Source of the DNA: Escherichia coli
GTDB lineage: Bacteria; Pseudomonadota; Gammaproteobacteria; Enterobacterales; Enterobacteriaceae
Length of the DNA stretch: 64,000 bases
Direction: 5' to 3' (one strand)
Assembly (NCBI RefSeq): GCF_044324785.1
Contig: NZ_CP172127.1
Below the pieces are notes generated by a model, which saw only the letters and a program-made list of their open reading frames with translations, did no database searches and was not told where the DNA came from. The position numbers were made by a program, and so were the translations under genes. The number at the start of each line of letters is the position of its first letter. Within the stretch, counting starts at the first letter, position 1. Shown here piece by piece: positions 5,344 to 28,930 of this stretch.

Positions 5344-8300
5344 ATGATTACTATTGACGGTAATGGCGCGGTTGCTTCGGTGGCGTTTCGCACCAGTGAA
5401 GTTATCGCCATCTACCCTATTACCCCCAGTTCCACGATGGCAGAACAGGCTGATGCATGGGCCGGAAACGGCTTGAAAAACGTCTGGGGAGACACACCAC
5501 GCGTGGTTGAAATGCAGTCGGAAGCAGGTGCTATCGCTACCGTGCATGGCGCTTTGCAGACGGGTGCCCTTTCAACATCGTTTACGTCATCGCAGGGTTT
5601 GCTGCTGATGATCCCGACGCTGTACAAACTGGCAGGCGAACTCACACCGTTTGTCCTACATGTAGCGGCACGTACCGTTGCCACACATGCACTCTCTATT
5701 TTTGGCGATCATTCCGACGTCATGGCGGTGCGCCAGACGGGTTGCGCGATGTTGTGTGCGGCAAACGTCCAGGAAGCGCAAGACTTTGCTCTCATTTCGC
5801 ACATCGCGACGCTGAAAAGCCGCGTGCCATTTATTCATTTCTTTGATGGTTTCCGCACGTCCCACGAAATCAATAAAATTGTCCCGCTGGCCGATGACAC
5901 GATTCTTGATCTCATGCCGCAGGCCGAAATTGATGCTCATCGCGCCCGGGCACTCAACCCGGAACATCCGGTGATCCGCGGTACGTCCGCCAATCCTGAC
6001 ACTTATTTCCAGTCTCGCGAAGCCACCAACCCCTGGTACAACGCGGTCTATGACCATGTTGAGCAGGCGATGAATGATTTCGCTGCCGCGACAGGTCGTC
6101 AGTATCAGCCGTTTGAGTATTACGGGCATCCGCAAGCTGAACGAGTGATTATCCTGATGGGCTCAGCCATTGGCACCTGTGAAGAAGTGGTTGATGAATT
6201 GCTAACCCGTGGCGAAAAAGTCGGCGTGCTGAAAATTCGCCTGTACCGCCCCTTCTCAGCCAAACACTTGCTACAAGCTCTGCCGGGATCCGTACGCAGC
6301 GTGGCGGTACTGGACAGAACCAAAGAACCCGGTGCCCAGGCAGAACCGCTCTATCTGGATGTGATGACCGCACTGGCAGAAGCCTTTAATAATGGCGAGC
6401 GCGAAACCCTGCCCCGTGTCATTGGTGGGCGCTATGGTCTTTCATCCAAAGAATTTGGCCCGGACTGTGTACTGGCGGTATTTGCCGAGCTCAACGCGGC
6501 TAAACCGAAAGCGCGCTTTACGGTTGGTATTTACGATGATGTGACCAATCTGTCACTGCCGTTGCCGGAAAACACCCTGCCAAACTCGGCGAAACTTGAA
6601 GCCTTGTTTTATGGCCTTGGTAGTGATGGCAGCGTTTCCGCGACCAAAAACAATATCAAGATTATCGGTAATTCCACGCCGTGGTACGCACAGGGCTATT
6701 TTGTTTACGACTCCAAAAAGGCGGGCGGCCTGACGGTTTCTCACCTTCGCGTGAGCGAGCAGCCGATTCGTTCCGCTTATCTCATTTCCCAGGCTGATTT
6801 TGTTGGCTGCCACCAGTTGCAGTTTATCGATAAATATCAGATGGTTGAACGTTTAAAACCTAGCGGCATTTTCCTGCTCAACACGCCGTACAGCGCAGAT
6901 GAAGTGTGGTCGCGCTTGCCGCAGGAAGTTCAGGCCGTGTTAAACCAGAAAAAAGCGCGCTTCTATGTGATTAACGCGGCGAAAATCGCCCGCGAATGTG
7001 GCCTGGCGGCCCGTATTAATACCGTCATGCAGATGGCTTTTTTCCATCTGACGCAAATTCTGCCTGGCGATAGCGCCCTCGCAGAATTGCAGGGTGCGAT
7101 TGCCAAAAGTTACAGTAGCAAAGGTCAGGATCTGGTGGAGCGCAACTGGCAGGCTCTGGCGCTGGCGCGTGAATCCGTAGAAGAAGTTCCGTTGCAGCCG
7201 GTTAATCCGCACAGCGCCAATCGACCGCCTGTGGTTTCCGATGCCGCTCCTGATTTCGTGAAAACCGTTACCGCGGCGATGCTCGCCGGGCTTGGTGATG
7301 CCCTCCCCGTTTCGGCGCTGCCGCCAGACGGCACCTGGCCGATGGGCACCACGCGCTGGGAAAAACGCAATATCGCCGAAGAGATCCCCATCTGGAAAGA
7401 GGAACTCTGTACCCAATGTAACCACTGCGTCGCCGCTTGCCCACACTCAGCTATTCGCGCAAAAGTGGTACCGCCTGAAGCGATGGAAAACGCCCCTGCC
7501 AGCCTGCATTCGCTGGATGTGAAATCGCGTGATATGCGCGGGCAGAAATATGTCTTGCAGGTGGCACCGGAAGATTGCACCGGCTGTAACCTGTGCGTCG
7601 AAGTTTGCCCGGCGAAAGACCGTCAGAATCCAGAGATTAAAGCCATCAATATGATGTCGCGCCTGGAACATGTCGAAGAAGAGAAAATCAATTACGATTT
7701 CTTCCTCAACCTGCCAGAAATCGACCGTAGCAAACTGGAACGTATTGATATTCGTACATCGCAGCTGATTACACCGCTGTTTGAATATTCAGGTGCTTGC
7801 TCCGGTTGTGGCGAGACGCCGTATATTAAATTGCTGACTCAGCTCTATGGCGACCGGATGTTGATCGCTAACGCCACGGGCTGTTCTTCAATTTATGGCG
7901 GTAACCTGCCCTCTACACCGTATACTACCGATGCCAACGGTCGAGGACCGGCATGGGCGAACTCGCTGTTTGAAGATAACGCCGAATTTGGCCTTGGTTT
8001 CCGCCTGACGGTCGATCAACACCGTGTCCGCGTGCTGCGTCTGCTGGATCAATTTGCCGATAAAATCCCGGCTGAATTACTAACTGCGTTGAAATCAGAC
8101 GCCACGCCAGAGGTTCGTCGTGAACAGGTTGCAGCTTTACGCCAGCAACTCAAAGATGTTGCCGAAGCACATGAACTGCTACGTGACGCAGATGCGCTGG
8201 TGGAAAAATCAATCTGGCTGATTGGCGGCGACGGCTGGGCTTACGATATCGGCTTTGGCGGTTTGGATCATGTATTGAGTTTGACAGAAAACGTCAACAT

Positions 8301-8868
8301 TCTGGTGCTGGATACGCAATGCTATTCCAACACCGGTGGTCAGGCGTCGAAAGCGACACCGCTGGGTGCAGTAACTAAGTTCGGCGAGCACGGCAAACGT
8401 AAAGCGCGTAAAGATCTTGGCGTCAGTATGATGATGTACGGTCATGTTTATGTGGCGCAGATTTCTCTCGGCGCGCAGCTCAACCAGACGGTGAAAGCGA
8501 TTCAGGAAGCGGAAGCGTATCCGGGGCCATCGCTGATCATCGCTTATAGCCCCTGTGAAGAGCATGGTTACGATCTGGCACTCAGTCACGACCAGATGCG
8601 CCAACTCACTGCTACCGGCTTCTGGCCGCTATATCGCTTTGATCCGCGTCGTGCCGATGAAGGCAAACTGCCGCTGGCGCTGGATTCACGCCCGCCGTCA
8701 GAAGCACTGGAAGAAACGTTACTTCATGAGCAGCGTTTCCGTCGTCTGAATTCGCTGCAGCCAGAAGTGGCAGAACAGTTATGGAAAGATGCTGCAGCTG
8801 ATTTGCAAAAACGCTATGACTTCCTGGCACAAATGGCCGGAAAAGCGGAAAAAAGCAACACCGATTAA
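5344..8868 (+). CDS. ydbK: pyruvate:flavodoxin/ferredoxin oxidoreductase (1174 aa)
   Basis: 1174 aa; two 4Fe-4S ferredoxin motifs CTQCNHCVAACP and CTGCNLCVEVCP; TPP-binding GGDGWAYDIGFGG. Confidence 0.95.
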   Translation: MITIDGNGAVASVAFRTSEVIAIYPITPSSTMAEQADAWAGNGLKNVWGDTPRVVEMQSEAGAIATVHGALQTGALSTSFTSSQGLLLMIPTLYKLAGELTPFVLHVAARTVATHALSIFGDHSDVMAVRQTGCAMLCAANVQEAQDFALISHIATLKSRVPFIHFFDGFRTSHEINKIVPLADDTILDLMPQAEIDAHRARALNPEHPVIRGTSANPDTYFQSREATNPWYNAVYDHVEQAMNDFAAATGRQYQPFEYYGHPQAERVIILMGSAIGTCEEVVDELLTRGEKVGVLKIRLYRPFSAKHLLQALPGSVRSVAVLDRTKEPGAQAEPLYLDVMTALAEAFNNGERETLPRVIGGRYGLSSKEFGPDCVLAVFAELNAAKPKARFTVGIYDDVTNLSLPLPENTLPNSAKLEALFYGLGSDGSVSATKNNIKIIGNSTPWYAQGYFVYDSKKAGGLTVSHLRVSEQPIRSAYLISQADFVGCHQLQFIDKYQMVERLKPSGIFLLNTPYSADEVWSRLPQEVQAVLNQKKARFYVINAAKIARECGLAARINTVMQMAFFHLTQILPGDSALAELQGAIAKSYSSKGQDLVERNWQALALARESVEEVPLQPVNPHSANRPPVVSDAAPDFVKTVTAAMLAGLGDALPVSALPPDGTWPMGTTRWEKRNIAEEIPIWKEELCTQCNHCVAACPHSAIRAKVVPPEAMENAPASLHSLDVKSRDMRGQKYVLQVAPEDCTGCNLCVEVCPAKDRQNPEIKAINMMSRLEHVEEEKINYDFFLNLPEIDRSKLERIDIRTSQLITPLFEYSGACSGCGETPYIKLLTQLYGDRMLIANATGCSSIYGGNLPSTPYTTDANGRGPAWANSLFEDNAEFGLGFRLTVDQHRVRVLRLLDQFADKIPAELLTALKSDATPEVRREQVAALRQQLKDVAEAHELLRDADALVEKSIWLIGGDGWAYDIGFGGLDHVLSLTENVNILVLDTQCYSNTGGQASKATPLGAVTKFGEHGKRKARKDLGVSMMMYGHVYVAQISLGAQLNQTVKAIQEAEAYPGPSLIIAYSPCEEHGYDLALSHDQMRQLTATGFWPLYRFDPRRADEGKLPLALDSRPPSEALEETLLHEQRFRRLNSLQPEVAEQLWKDAAADLQKRYDFLAQMAGKAEKSNTD

Positions 8869-8896
8869 ATGTTCTGGATAAGAATTATCCAATTCT

Positions 8897-9006
8897 AAAA
8901 AAAAGCCCGAACGACTGTTCGGGCTTGTCTTTTTATATGTTGGAAAATCAGTGGCAATGCAATGGCCCAACAGAAAATAAAATCTGTGACAATAAAGGCA
9001 TATAAC
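8897..9006 (-). ncRNA. micC: MicC small RNA (about 109 nt), antisense regulator of porin mRNAs
   Basis: Minus-strand sequence GTTATATGCCTTTATTGTCACAGATTTTATTTTCTGTTGGGCC... ending in hairpin GCCCGAACAGTCGTTCGGGC plus U-run matches MicC as I recall it; lies between ydbK and ompN. Confidence 0.85.
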
Positions 9007-9233
9007 CCGCGCAGAATAACGTATAGCAAATTAAAAGTATAATTTTTATTTTGTATGTATTATCTCCAATACATTCACCAGACTTATTATCATTTCAGAA
9101 GAATTATTTGATTAAGGTTTTACTTAAGGCGTAACAAATAATATTTATCGGCTAACTGAACTTCTCCTTTAGGATGTTTTCACTCCCCGAAATGGGGATA
9201 AAAGGCAAATAAAATAACTAAAGGATTTATTCA

Positions 9234-10367
9234 ATGAAAAGCAAAGTACTGGCACTTTTAATTCCTGCCCTGCTCGCCGCAGGTGCTGCACATGCAGCCG
9301 AAGTTTATAATAAAGACGGCAACAAATTAGATCTGTATGGCAAAGTTGATGGCCTGCATTATTTTTCTGATAATTCAGCGAAAGATGGCGACCAGAGCTA
9401 TGCGCGTCTGGGTTTTAAAGGCGAAACCCAAATTAACGATCAACTAACTGGCTACGGTCAATGGGAATACAATATTCAGGCAAACAACACTGAATCCTCA
9501 AAAAACCAGTCATGGACCCGTCTGGCATTTGCCGGATTGAAATTTGCAGATTACGGTTCTTTCGATTACGGACGTAATTATGGCGTAATGTACGACATCG
9601 AAGGCTGGACCGATATGCTGCCTGAATTTGGCGGTGACTCTTATACCAATGCAGACAACTTTATGACTGGTCGAGCCAATGGCGTCGCGACTTATCGTAA
9701 TACTGATTTCTTCGGTCTGGTAAATGGTCTGAACTTCGCGGTGCAGTATCAAGGTAACAACGAAGGTGCCAGTAATGGTCAGGAAGGCACCAACAACGGA
9801 CGTGATGTTCGCCATGAAAACGGTGACGGCTGGGGTCTTTCCACAACATATGATTTAGGCATGGGCTTTAGCGCTGGTGCGGCATACACCTCTTCTGACC
9901 GCACCAATGACCAGGTTAACCATACTGCGGCGGGTGGTGATAAAGCAGACGCATGGACTGCTGGGCTAAAATACGATGCTAACAATATTTACCTGGCAAC
10001 CATGTATTCAGAAACGCGTAATATGACCCCGTTTGGCGACAGCGATTATGCTGTTGCAAACAAAACCCAGAACTTTGAAGTTACTGCACAGTACCAGTTT
10101 GATTTTGGTCTGCGTCCGGCAGTCTCTTTCCTGATGTCTAAAGGCCGTGACCTGCACGCTGCCGGTGGTGCAGACAACCCGGCAGGTGTTGATGATAAAG
10201 ATCTGGTTAAATACGCCGATGTTGGCGCGACTTACTATTTCAACAAAAATATGTCCACCTACGTTGACTATAAAATCAACCTGTTGGATGAAGATGACAG
10301 CTTCTACGCTGCCAACGGCATCTCTACCGATGATATTGTCGCTTTAGGTCTGGTTTATCAGTTCTAA
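9234..10367 (+). CDS. ompN: outer membrane porin OmpN (377 aa)
   Basis: 377 aa, signal peptide ending AHA, porin-like beta-strand pattern, C-terminal YQF. Confidence 0.95.
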
Positions 10368-10949: not shown

Positions 10950-10975
10950 GCCCGCACATTGCTGCGGGCTTTTTG
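10950..10975 (+). terminator. rho-independent terminator of uspF
   Basis: gcccgca cattgc tgcgggc followed by ttttt. Confidence 0.7.
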
Positions 10976-11117: not shown

Positions 11118-12053
11118 ATGTCGCAAAATCAAGAAATTAGTAAGAAAGAACAATACAACCTGAACAAATTACAAAAACGTCTGCGTCGTAACGTGGGCGA
11201 AGCCATTGCTGACTTCAATATGATTGAAGAAGGCGATCGCATCATGGTTTGCCTCTCCGGGGGTAAAGACAGCTATACCATGCTGGAGATTCTGCGCAAT
11301 TTGCAGCAAAGCGCGCCAATCAATTTTTCGCTGGTGGCTGTTAACCTCGATCAAAAGCAACCGGGCTTCCCGGAACACGTTCTGCCCGAGTATCTTGAAA
11401 AGCTGGGCGTTGAGTACAAGATTGTTGAAGAGAACACTTACGGTATCGTGAAAGAGAAAATTCCAGAGGGCAAAACCACTTGCTCACTGTGTTCTCGCCT
11501 GCGTCGCGGTATCCTTTATCGTACCGCAACGGAACTAGGGGCGACGAAGATCGCACTGGGTCACCATCGTGACGATATCCTGCAAACGCTGTTCTTAAAT
11601 ATGTTCTACGGTGGCAAGATGAAAGGTATGCCTCCGAAACTGATGAGCGATGATGGCAAACATATCGTGATTCGTCCGCTGGCCTACTGCCGCGAGAAAG
11701 ATATTCAGCGCTTTGCCGATGCAAAAGCGTTCCCGATTATTCCGTGCAACCTGTGCGGTTCACAGCCTAACCTGCAACGTCAGGTAATTGCTGACATGTT
11801 GCGTGACTGGGATAAACGTTATCCGGGGCGTATCGAGACGATGTTCAGCGCAATGCAGAATGTGGTGCCGTCGCATCTGTGCGATACCAACCTGTTCGAT
11901 TTCAAAGGCATTACCCACGGTTCTGAAGTGGTTAACGGGGGTGATCTGGCGTTTGATCGCGAAGAGATCCCACTACAACCGGCGGGCTGGCAGCCAGAAG
12001 AAGATGAAAATCAGTTGGATGAGTTACGACTGAATGTGGTTGAAGTGAAATAA
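11118..12053 (+). CDS. ttcA: tRNA 2-thiocytidine(32) synthetase TtcA, intact (311 aa)
   Basis: 311 aa; PP-loop ATP pyrophosphatase motif SGGKDS; CxxC pairs (CSLC, CNLC). Confidence 0.9.
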
Positions 12054-12181: not shown

Positions 12182-13555
12182 TTATTTTAATAACCGCACC
12201 CGGCACGTTTTTCCTTTAATCTTCCCGCCCTGCAACTGTTTCCATGCTTTATGAGCAACAGCCTGACGCACCGCGACATAGACATGCGCCGGATGCACGG
12301 CGATTTTGCCAATATCTGCGCCATCAAGCCCGATATCTCCTGTCAGCGCACCTAATACATCACCCGGGCGCATTTTGGCTTTTTTCCCGCCATCGATACA
12401 TAACGTTGCCATTTCGGCTTCCAGCGGCACAATGGAACTATTAACTGGCGGCGTTTGCCAGTTAAGTTTTATCTGCAACATGTCAGAAATGATATTGGCC
12501 CGCTGTGCTTCTTCCGGGGCACAGAAACTGATCGCCAGACCGCTATTTCCTGCACGCGCTGTGCGACCGATGCGATGTACATGAACTTCAGGATCCCACG
12601 CCAGCTCAAAGTTCACCACCAGCTCAAGCGATTTAATATCCAGACCTCGCGCAGCAACATCAGTCGCAACCAGTACACGGGCGCTACCGTTAGCAAAACG
12701 TACCAGGGTCTGATCGCGATCGCGTTGCTCCAGATCGCCGTGTAACGACAATGCACTTTGCCCTACTTCATTCAGCGCGTCGCAGACAGCCTGGCAATCT
12801 TTTTTGGTATTGCAAAACACCACACAAGAGGATGGCTGATGCAAGCTTAATAACCGTTGCAACAGAGGAATTTTGCCTTTACTGGATGTCTCATAAAATT
12901 GTTGTTCAATGGGTGGCAAAGCATCTGTTGAGTCAATTTCAATCGCCAAAGGATCGCGTTGCACTCGTCCGCTGATTGCGGCGATGGCTTCCGGCCAGGT
13001 TGCCGAAAACAGAAGCGTCTGTCGAGATGCAGGCGCAAAACGGATGACATCATCAATGGCATCGCTAAATCCCATATCCAGCATGCGGTCGGCCTCATCC
13101 ATCACCAAAGTATTCAGCGCATCCAGTGATACCGTGCCTTTTTGCAAGTGATCCAGCAAACGACCCGGCGTTGCCACGATAATATGCGGCGCATGTTGCA
13201 ACGAATCACGCTGCAAACCGAACGGTTGACCACCGCACAACGTCAAAATTTTGGTATTTGGCAGAAAACGCGCCAACCGACGCAATTCACCTGCCACCTG
13301 ATCCGCCAGTTCACGCGTAGGACACAGCACTAAAGCCTGGGTTTGAAATAGCGACGCATCAATTTGCTGTAACAAGCCGAGGCCAAAAGCCGCCGTTTTG
13401 CCGCTGCCGGTTTTCGCCTGCACGCGAACATCTTTTCCGGCAAGGATCGCCGGAAGCGCGGCGGCCTGCACCGGCGTCATGGTTAAATAACCCAACTCAT
13501 TAAGGTTCGTGAGTTGGGCGGGAGGCAAAACATTCAGGGTAGAAAAAGCGGTCAC
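12182..13555 (-). CDS. dbpA: ATP-dependent DEAD-box RNA helicase DbpA (457 aa)
   Basis: 457 aa; Walker A AKTGSGKT, DEAD box VMDEADRML, SAT motif. Confidence 0.95.
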   Translation of the reverse strand: MTAFSTLNVLPPAQLTNLNELGYLTMTPVQAAALPAILAGKDVRVQAKTGSGKTAAFGLGLLQQIDASLFQTQALVLCPTRELADQVAGELRRLARFLPNTKILTLCGGQPFGLQRDSLQHAPHIIVATPGRLLDHLQKGTVSLDALNTLVMDEADRMLDMGFSDAIDDVIRFAPASRQTLLFSATWPEAIAAISGRVQRDPLAIEIDSTDALPPIEQQFYETSSKGKIPLLQRLLSLHQPSSCVVFCNTKKDCQAVCDALNEVGQSALSLHGDLEQRDRDQTLVRFANGSARVLVATDVAARGLDIKSLELVVNFELAWDPEVHVHRIGRTARAGNSGLAISFCAPEEAQRANIISDMLQIKLNWQTPPVNSSIVPLEAEMATLCIDGGKKAKMRPGDVLGALTGDIGLDGADIGKIAVHPAHVYVAVRQAVAHKAWKQLQGGKIKGKTCRVRLLK

Positions 13556-13815: not shown

Positions 13816-13937
13816 AAAAAAAAGCCGACTCATCAAAGTCGGCGTCGTACGAATCAATTGTGCTATGCAGTAATTCAAAAAAGGAAGTAAGACAATATGG
13901 AGCGCAACGCCCATCGCTTGACGTTGCATTCACCTGC
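13816..13937 (-). ncRNA. fnrS: FnrS small RNA (about 122 nt), FNR-activated anaerobic sRNA
   Basis: Minus-strand GCAGGTGAATGCAACGTCAAGCGATGGGCGTTGCGCTCC...GCCGACTTTGATGAGTCGGC plus U8 matches FnrS as I recall it. Confidence 0.85.
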
Positions 13938-20803: not shown

Positions 20804-20897
20804 ACCGGTCACCAGGACCCCAGGCCGGATTTAAGACGAGGATGCACTGCTGTGTGTACTGTAGAGTCTGGCGGATGTCGACAGACTCTATTTTTTT
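20804..20897 (+). ncRNA. mcaS: McaS (IsrA) small RNA
   Basis: ACCGGTCACCAGGACCCCAGGCCGGATTTAAGACGAGGATGCACTGCTGTGTGTACTGTAGAGTCTGGCGGATGTCGACAGACTCTATTTTTTT; GGA motifs plus terminal hairpin and U-run; -35/-10 candidates ttggca/tataac upstream. Confidence 0.8.
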
Positions 20898-20905
20898 ATG
20901 CAGTT

Positions 20906-28903: not shown

Positions 28904-28930
28904 AGGCCCGAGTTATCGGGCCTATTTTTT
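28904..28930. terminator. terminator hairpin between convergent uspE and ynaJ
   Basis: aggcccga gtta tcgggcct followed by attttttt. Confidence 0.65.

Follow-up and report, generated by a model that had tools for sequence, protein, structure and literature searches.

The window analysed here is a 64 kb stretch of Escherichia coli DNA, which has no exact match in the E. coli collection (best identity 99.2% over 20 kb). At the locus of interest, the plus strand carries ydbK (also annotated nifJ; 5344..8868, per the ORF list and the RefSeq annotation of the orthologous region), which encodes a pyruvate:flavodoxin/ferredoxin oxidoreductase of 1174 aa. Its stop codon, TAA, lies at 8866-8868, and its C-terminal sequence, ...RYDFLAQMAGKAEKSNTD, is the same as in K-12. 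Beyond ydbK, in its direction of transcription, the gene that any read-through would run toward is ompN (9234..10367, plus strand, per the ORF list and RefSeq annotation); both genes were named after their orthologues in E. coli 042 and K-12, as annotated in RefSeq. Between them, on the minus strand, lies the small RNA MicC, which was recognised by the Rfam model RF00121 at 9009..8889 with a score of 127.5 bits against a gathering score of 90. The match spans the full model (model positions 1-123), and the terminal stem of the model corresponds to the hairpin and U-tail described below. Taking the start as the G of GUUAUAUG and placing the end in the U-tract, per Rfam, the K-12 annotation and the stated length of the RNA, MicC occupies 8898..9006 and is 109 nt long. 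The annotated order in K-12 is ompN, micC (1437121..1437231, plus strand) and ydbK (1437260..1440784, minus strand), and the region was found in 5412 of 5426 complete E. coli genomes, with flanking features annotated as nifJ (ydbK) and ompN. Two other Rfam matches in the window are FnrS (13820-13937, minus strand, RF01796, 134.8 bits) and McaS (20804-20899, plus strand, RF00115, 113.5 bits).

From 8860 to 8940 the plus strand reads ...ACCGAT TAA ATGTTC TGGATAAGAATTATCCA ATTCT AAAAAAAA GCCCGAAC GACT GTTCGGGC TTGTCTTTTT ATATG. The initial annotation had proposed that a single hairpin here, with the loop gact, terminates both ydbK and MicC, and the loop was confirmed at 8913-8916, between a first core arm GCCCGAAC (8905-8912) and a second core arm GTTCGGGC (8917-8924). 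Two A-T pairs lengthen the stem from 8 to 10 bp, giving the whole stem AAGCCCGAAC / GTTCGGGCTT at 8903-8926, which was recovered on both strands by sequence inspection, consensus scan and folding. On the plus strand the hairpin is found 36 nt past the ydbK/nifJ stop codon. This 10-bp stem holds 6 G-C pairs around a loop of 4 nt, and it was classed as terminator-like on both strands by the consensus scan, with the tail GTCTTTTTAT on the plus strand and TTTTTTAGAA on the minus strand. For the allele present in the window, the stem energy is -16.3 kcal/mol and is equal in both senses. The predicted fold of the plus strand has an energy of -17.4 kcal/mol over 39 nt (z -4.9) and that of the minus strand -18.8 kcal/mol over 43 nt (z -5.7), and none of 200 shuffles folded as well on either strand.

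The two flanks of the hairpin are not equivalent. On one side, a tract of eight A on the plus strand (8897-8904) reads, on the minus strand, as the U8 that follows the MicC terminator hairpin. On the other side, the ydbK-sense tail (8925-8934, plus strand; TTGTCTTTTT in DNA, UUGUCUUUUU in RNA) is T-rich, with T/U at 8 of 10 positions and U at 7 of the 8 nt past the 10-bp stem, but it is interrupted. The expectation of an A-run on one side and a T-run on the other thus held for the A-run, which is the only uninterrupted one; the T-run is broken. The range originally given for the element, 8869-8930, is also too short, as the T-rich tail continues four bases further, to 8934. That range also contains a second hairpin that had gone unmentioned, an A/T-rich predicted fold of 7 bp in the ydbK 3' UTR, TGGATAA-GAA-TTATCCA (8875..8891, plus strand), upstream of the terminator. 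Its arms are conserved across Escherichia species and its spacer is variable. The palindrome GGATAA-N3-TTATCC occurs twice in the window against 0.08 copies expected, at 8875-8891 and at 11810-11824, the latter copy lying within a 311-aa ORF (11118-12053). The palindrome may represent a hairpin in the RNA or a binding site for a protein.

A permissive consensus terminator scan returned 2 sites in 2 kb against 2.2 expected and has no significance alone, and a stricter test was therefore applied to the whole 64 kb window and to 500 dinucleotide shuffles. A site counted only if it combined a perfect stem (7 bp or longer, with 4 or more G-C pairs) with 6 or more A among the 10 nt before it and 6 or more T among the 10 nt after it. 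The MicC/ydbK hairpin was the one site found in the window, against an expectation of 0.008 per shuffle (4 of the 500 shuffles contained any site). Hairpins with a T-rich tail on the plus strand only were seen elsewhere in the window. Two with perfect stems, at 12441-12465 and 28904-28923, are probably ordinary one-way terminators. Another, GCCCGCA-CATTGC-TGCGGGC followed by TTTTTG (10950-10969, plus strand), lies past a uspF-like ORF, and the same hairpin and tail (GCCCGCACAUUGCUGCGGGCUUUUUGAUUC) are found in the TRS data at the primary 3' end of K-12 uspF, 1435149-1435152 (PMC10687069). The FnrS terminator hairpin (13824-13843) is also one-sided and, unlike the MicC terminator, lacks a T-rich tail on the plus strand.

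For comparison across species, one genome per species was scanned with the MicC 5' seed GTTANATGCCTTTATTNTCA, which was chosen so that the terminator itself was not selected on. The scan yielded 45 loci, comprising 34 enterobacterial micC loci (in Escherichia, Citrobacter, Salmonella, Klebsiella, Pseudocitrobacter, Superficieibacter and others) and 11 chance matches in unrelated phyla, which were discarded. Adding K-12, strain 042, five further E. coli and the window brought the set to 42 loci. The hairpin GCCCGAAY-loop-RTTCGGGC is present in all 42, and the convergent arrangement of ydbK and micC is conserved. Eight of the 10 stem pairs are the same in all 37 distinct sequences; the loop-closing pair shows a compensatory change from C-G to U-A in 4 of them, and the loop sequence varies freely. 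In all 35 loci whose flank is long enough, 22-41 nt separate the ydbK stop codon from the hairpin that follows it, and no second G+C-rich hairpin was found in this interval. A separate ydbK terminator ahead of the MicC hairpin was considered and rejected, the spacer being 22-41 nt in all genera and the only structure in it, in Escherichia, being the 7-bp A/T-rich hairpin, which has no U-tail.

The two tails differ markedly in their conservation. In the MicC sense, at least 7 uninterrupted U follow the hairpin in all 42 loci, with tail scores of 4.7-6.1. The ydbK-sense tail nearly always opens with UUGUC, complementary to a GACAA that is conserved in MicC, but is variable after that. In most Escherichia it is UUGUCUUUUU (8 of 10 U, score 3.2-3.3), in Klebsiella UUGUCGUUUU, in Citrobacter and Salmonella UUGUCAAUUU (6 of 10 U, score 2.45), and in Superficieibacter UUGUCAUAAA (4 of 10 U); the Citrobacter-type counterpart of TTGTCTTTTT in DNA is TTGTCAATTT. 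In the window itself the ydbK-sense tail scores 3.2 and the MicC tail 5.2. The invariance of the MicC U-run beside the variability of the ydbK tail points to strong selection on the MicC terminator. These alignments also indicate that the ydbK-side signal reaches its best form in Escherichia and derives in part from the MicC sequence; the quality of the ydbK tail may be a by-product of MicC altogether rather than a signal selected for ydbK. We would like to note one locus, in a Citrobacter MAG (DXKH01000073.1, about 1-130 of the locus), where micC and its terminator are intact and the downstream sequence is not a ydbK 3' end. Another hairpin, CCCCCAGC-TAG-GCTGGGGG, lies downstream there, the contig ends 247 nt from the micC start, and the difference may reflect a rearrangement or an insertion.

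Within E. coli, the stem itself is polymorphic at one position. Position 8910 is A in the window, where the stem is perfect in both senses, and G in K-12 and most E. coli. In the MicC sense the G allele produces an A.C mismatch and a stem energy of -11.8 kcal/mol, against -16.3 for the window allele; in the ydbK sense it produces a G.U pair and -15.8 kcal/mol. Exact-match counts over 5426 complete genomes gave 2495 of the K-12 type (nine A, then G at this position) and 1215 of the O157 type (eight A, G), with the window type (eight A, A) seen once, in strain 042, and a type with nine A and A seen twice. The probes used for these counts were short and left about 1,680 of the 5,426 genomes unreached, and at least 3710 of the approximately 3750 reached carry G. 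G also stands at the equivalent of 8910 in the three sampled strains whose tail or A-run length differs from these types. Since the stem is perfect in all other Escherichia species and genera sampled, the G looks derived, and the A of the window would be a rare allele of the ancestral type. MicC termination from this perfect-stem allele should be stronger than in K-12.

At intrinsic terminators, RNA is released at a distance of about 6-9 nt from the last core G-C pair. Available 3'-end data for ydbK come from K-12, whose locus has the same flanks as the window, one different stem base and one extra A. SMRT-Cappable-seq recorded a monocistronic reverse-strand transcript, 1437197..1440845, which fully covers only b1378 (ydbK), with 203 reads at its start, of which 49 end at 1437197, 9 pass this position and 1 ends no more than 50 bp downstream (PMC6131387). 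The termination site carries the tag 'novelTTS', i.e., RegulonDB has no terminator there, and the median read-through past it is 93 nt (PMC6131387). Of the ydbK molecules that reach the site in this dataset, about 83% stop there and about 15% (9 of 59), roughly one in six, continue. TRS assigned to ydbK a minus-strand 3' end with its peak at 1437194 (ranges 1437187/93 to 1437201/02), which recurs, at very small P values, in several datasets (PMC10687069). In that work, Supplementary Data 2 and 3 include matched RNAtag-seq and Term-seq from LB and minimal-medium cultures, and the upstream sequence printed for the ydbK end is ...GCCCGGACGACUGUUCGGGCUUGUCUUUUU / ...AAAAAAAAAGCCCGGACGACUGUUCGGGCUUGUCUUUUU, with a predicted hairpin of -16.9 kcal/mol (PMC10687069).

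The ends at 1437197 and 1437194 lie 6 and 9 nt, respectively, past the last core G-C pair and within the U-rich tail, and they correspond by position to 8930 and 8933 in the window, where the ydbK mRNA would be expected to have its 3' ends at about 8930-8934. 3'-end mapping had been named in the initial annotation as the check on its proposal, and on the ydbK side both K-12 ends fall in the tail; taken with the anatomy of the hairpin and the RF00121 match, they support one hairpin terminator common to ydbK and MicC. The Term-seq and BCM supplements of Adams 2021 hold no entry for micC, ydbK or pfo and none in the range 14371xx-14372xx. We regard this absence as uninformative and not as evidence against the terminator; it may well stem from low expression or curation thresholds.

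3'-end sequencing of either kind (TRS or SMRT-Cappable-seq) is blind to the difference between termination and exonuclease trimming back to a stable hairpin, and both methods mix primary and processed 3' ends. It is therefore conceivable that the hairpin terminates MicC only, and that the recorded ydbK ends belong to longer read-through transcripts trimmed from 3' to 5' by exonucleases. Such a reading would sit well with the interrupted, low-scoring tail in the ydbK sense (3.2 against 5.2 for MicC) and with its poor conservation outside Escherichia. Read-through molecules are also present (9 of 59 reads), and ydbK-ompN has been described as an operon: the two genes were co-expressed as one in a SoxS-constitutive strain, according to Fabrega et al. 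2012 as cited in PMC6176095, and the TRS class of the ydbK end, 'alternative primary in TU', means that the annotated unit continues beyond ydbK (PMC10687069). Nevertheless, the ends lie 6-9 nt past the G-C core, in the U-run, as in intrinsic release, and not at the base of the stem. A single read ending within 50 bp downstream and the 93-nt median read-through leave no large pool of longer precursors, and the Adams 2021 bicyclomycin (BCM) tables hold no Rho-dependent region nearby, at 14371xx-14372xx. A 10-bp stem followed by 8 of 10 U after the core fits the usual sequence criteria for a terminator. We infer that the ydbK ends arise from intrinsic termination and consider trimming an unlikely source of them.

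On the MicC side, the micC end annotated in RefSeq K-12 is the last U of the U-tract. The length of MicC is given as 109 nt in PMC5745476, citing Chen 2004. Counted from the annotated G, 109 nt ends in the U-tract, at 8898 in the window. No genome-wide record of a MicC 3' end was found in the TRS or Adams 2021 datasets, and it is from the RefSeq annotation and the reported length that we infer an end in the U-tract.

The arrangement of the locus raises the possibility of a different mechanism, in which the hairpin mainly pauses RNA polymerase and release is caused by head-on collision of the ydbK and micC polymerases together with trailing polymerases, as in the SEnd-seq model of 'bidirectional terminators'. 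The architecture, i.e., a convergent pair with one hairpin and overlapping 3' ends, fits this class, and the ynaJ-uspE element is weak alone and performs better under convergent transcription (Wang et al.). Against it, the canonical U8 on the MicC side needs no helper, and termination of ydbK is sharp, with an efficiency of about 83%, in datasets that contain no MicC 3' end, which suggests little opposing traffic. The model was moreover meant for terminators unlike intrinsic ones, and the MicC/ydbK hairpin is intrinsic-like both ways. We regard collision as very improbable at this site.

The explanation we favour, and hold to be likely, is that the hairpin at 8903-8926 is a bidirectional intrinsic (Rho-independent) terminator common to two convergent transcription units. 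A G+C-rich hairpin followed by a U-tract is found in both the MicC and the ydbK direction, and the two convergent units share this one hairpin with its A-tract and T-tract flanks. Under leftward transcription the hairpin would form the 3' stem-loop of MicC, and with the eight U that follow it would make a strong canonical terminator, leaving a product with a hairpin-plus-polyU 3' end. Such an end is typical of Hfq-binding small RNAs. Under rightward transcription the same palindrome would fold into an equally stable hairpin followed by UUGUCUUUUU, with release expected at UUGUCUUUU, such that most ydbK transcripts would end 6-9 nt past the G-C core. With MicC ending at 8898 and ydbK at 8930-8933, about 36 nt (approximately 8898-8933) would be present in both RNAs as complementary sequence.

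The terminator would be asymmetric, strong and under strong constraint in the MicC direction and moderately efficient in the ydbK direction, where the U-tract is weaker and interrupted and about one transcript in six would continue antisense through micC toward ompN. The initial view of a bidirectional terminator thus stands, with the qualification that the directions are not equivalent, as the ydbK side lets more transcripts through and is far less conserved. The ydbK read-through seen in K-12, with its median of 93 nt, just covers the antisense of micC (approximately 8935-9030 in the window, plus strand) and ends near the micC promoter. Adams 2021 lists a region of Rho-dependent termination antisense to ompN (K-12 1436165, plus strand; the equivalent position in the window is within ompN), from which an antisense RNA heading for micC and the start of ompN can be deduced.

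It is also conceivable that the asymmetry is functional, with the ydbK-side leak serving as a regulatory valve and the stem SNP tuning the two directions independently. If so, induction of ydbK by SoxS or RpoS would send read-through antisense across all of micC, which may hinder micC transcription or titrate MicC, and in some strains the read-through would reach ompN and couple oxidative-stress metabolism to porin control. No sign of regulation of the leak was seen in the K-12 3'-end datasets examined, and we think such a role improbable. For the shared intrinsic terminator, the practical consequences are modest. It has little weight beyond annotation, where it provides a 3' boundary for ydbK/nifJ (approximately 8930-8934). 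The well-used MicC terminator, part of the MicC scaffold, would be a two-way element at its native site, and edits to its stem or to the preceding A-rich stretch would also alter ydbK termination and antisense read-through.

Full-text literature searches retrieved no paper on the micC/ydbK terminator pair. Nevertheless, the element is an ordinary one, of a kind already known; existing annotation includes the MicC terminator, and two public tables contain the ydbK end. Compared with K-12 MicC (RF00121), the window is alike in its full-length match, including the terminal stem-loop and U-tail, and in its position between ompN and ydbK; the K-12 terminator differs in having G at the stem position where the window has A (8910) and a perfect stem. 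The ydbK site also resembles the leaky operon-variant terminators described by SMRT-Cappable-seq, in that about 15% of reads pass it and ydbK is not last in its unit, but its median read-through of 93 nt falls short of ompN. Shared bidirectional terminators have already been published for E. coli, at rpsO T1 = sraG T and at can/hpt, and hundreds of overlapping bidirectional terminators were reported by Ju et al. 2019 (SEnd-seq), according to the summary given by Wang et al. These have in common with the MicC/ydbK element one G+C-rich palindromic hairpin flanked by an A-tract and a T-tract between convergent units, overlapping 3' ends, and read-through that is unequal by direction, and rpsO/sraG is, like ydbK/MicC, a pair of an mRNA and a small RNA. 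Nothing essential sets the MicC/ydbK terminator apart from these known examples; what is particular to it is that one of its two tails is interrupted and varies in quality by genus.
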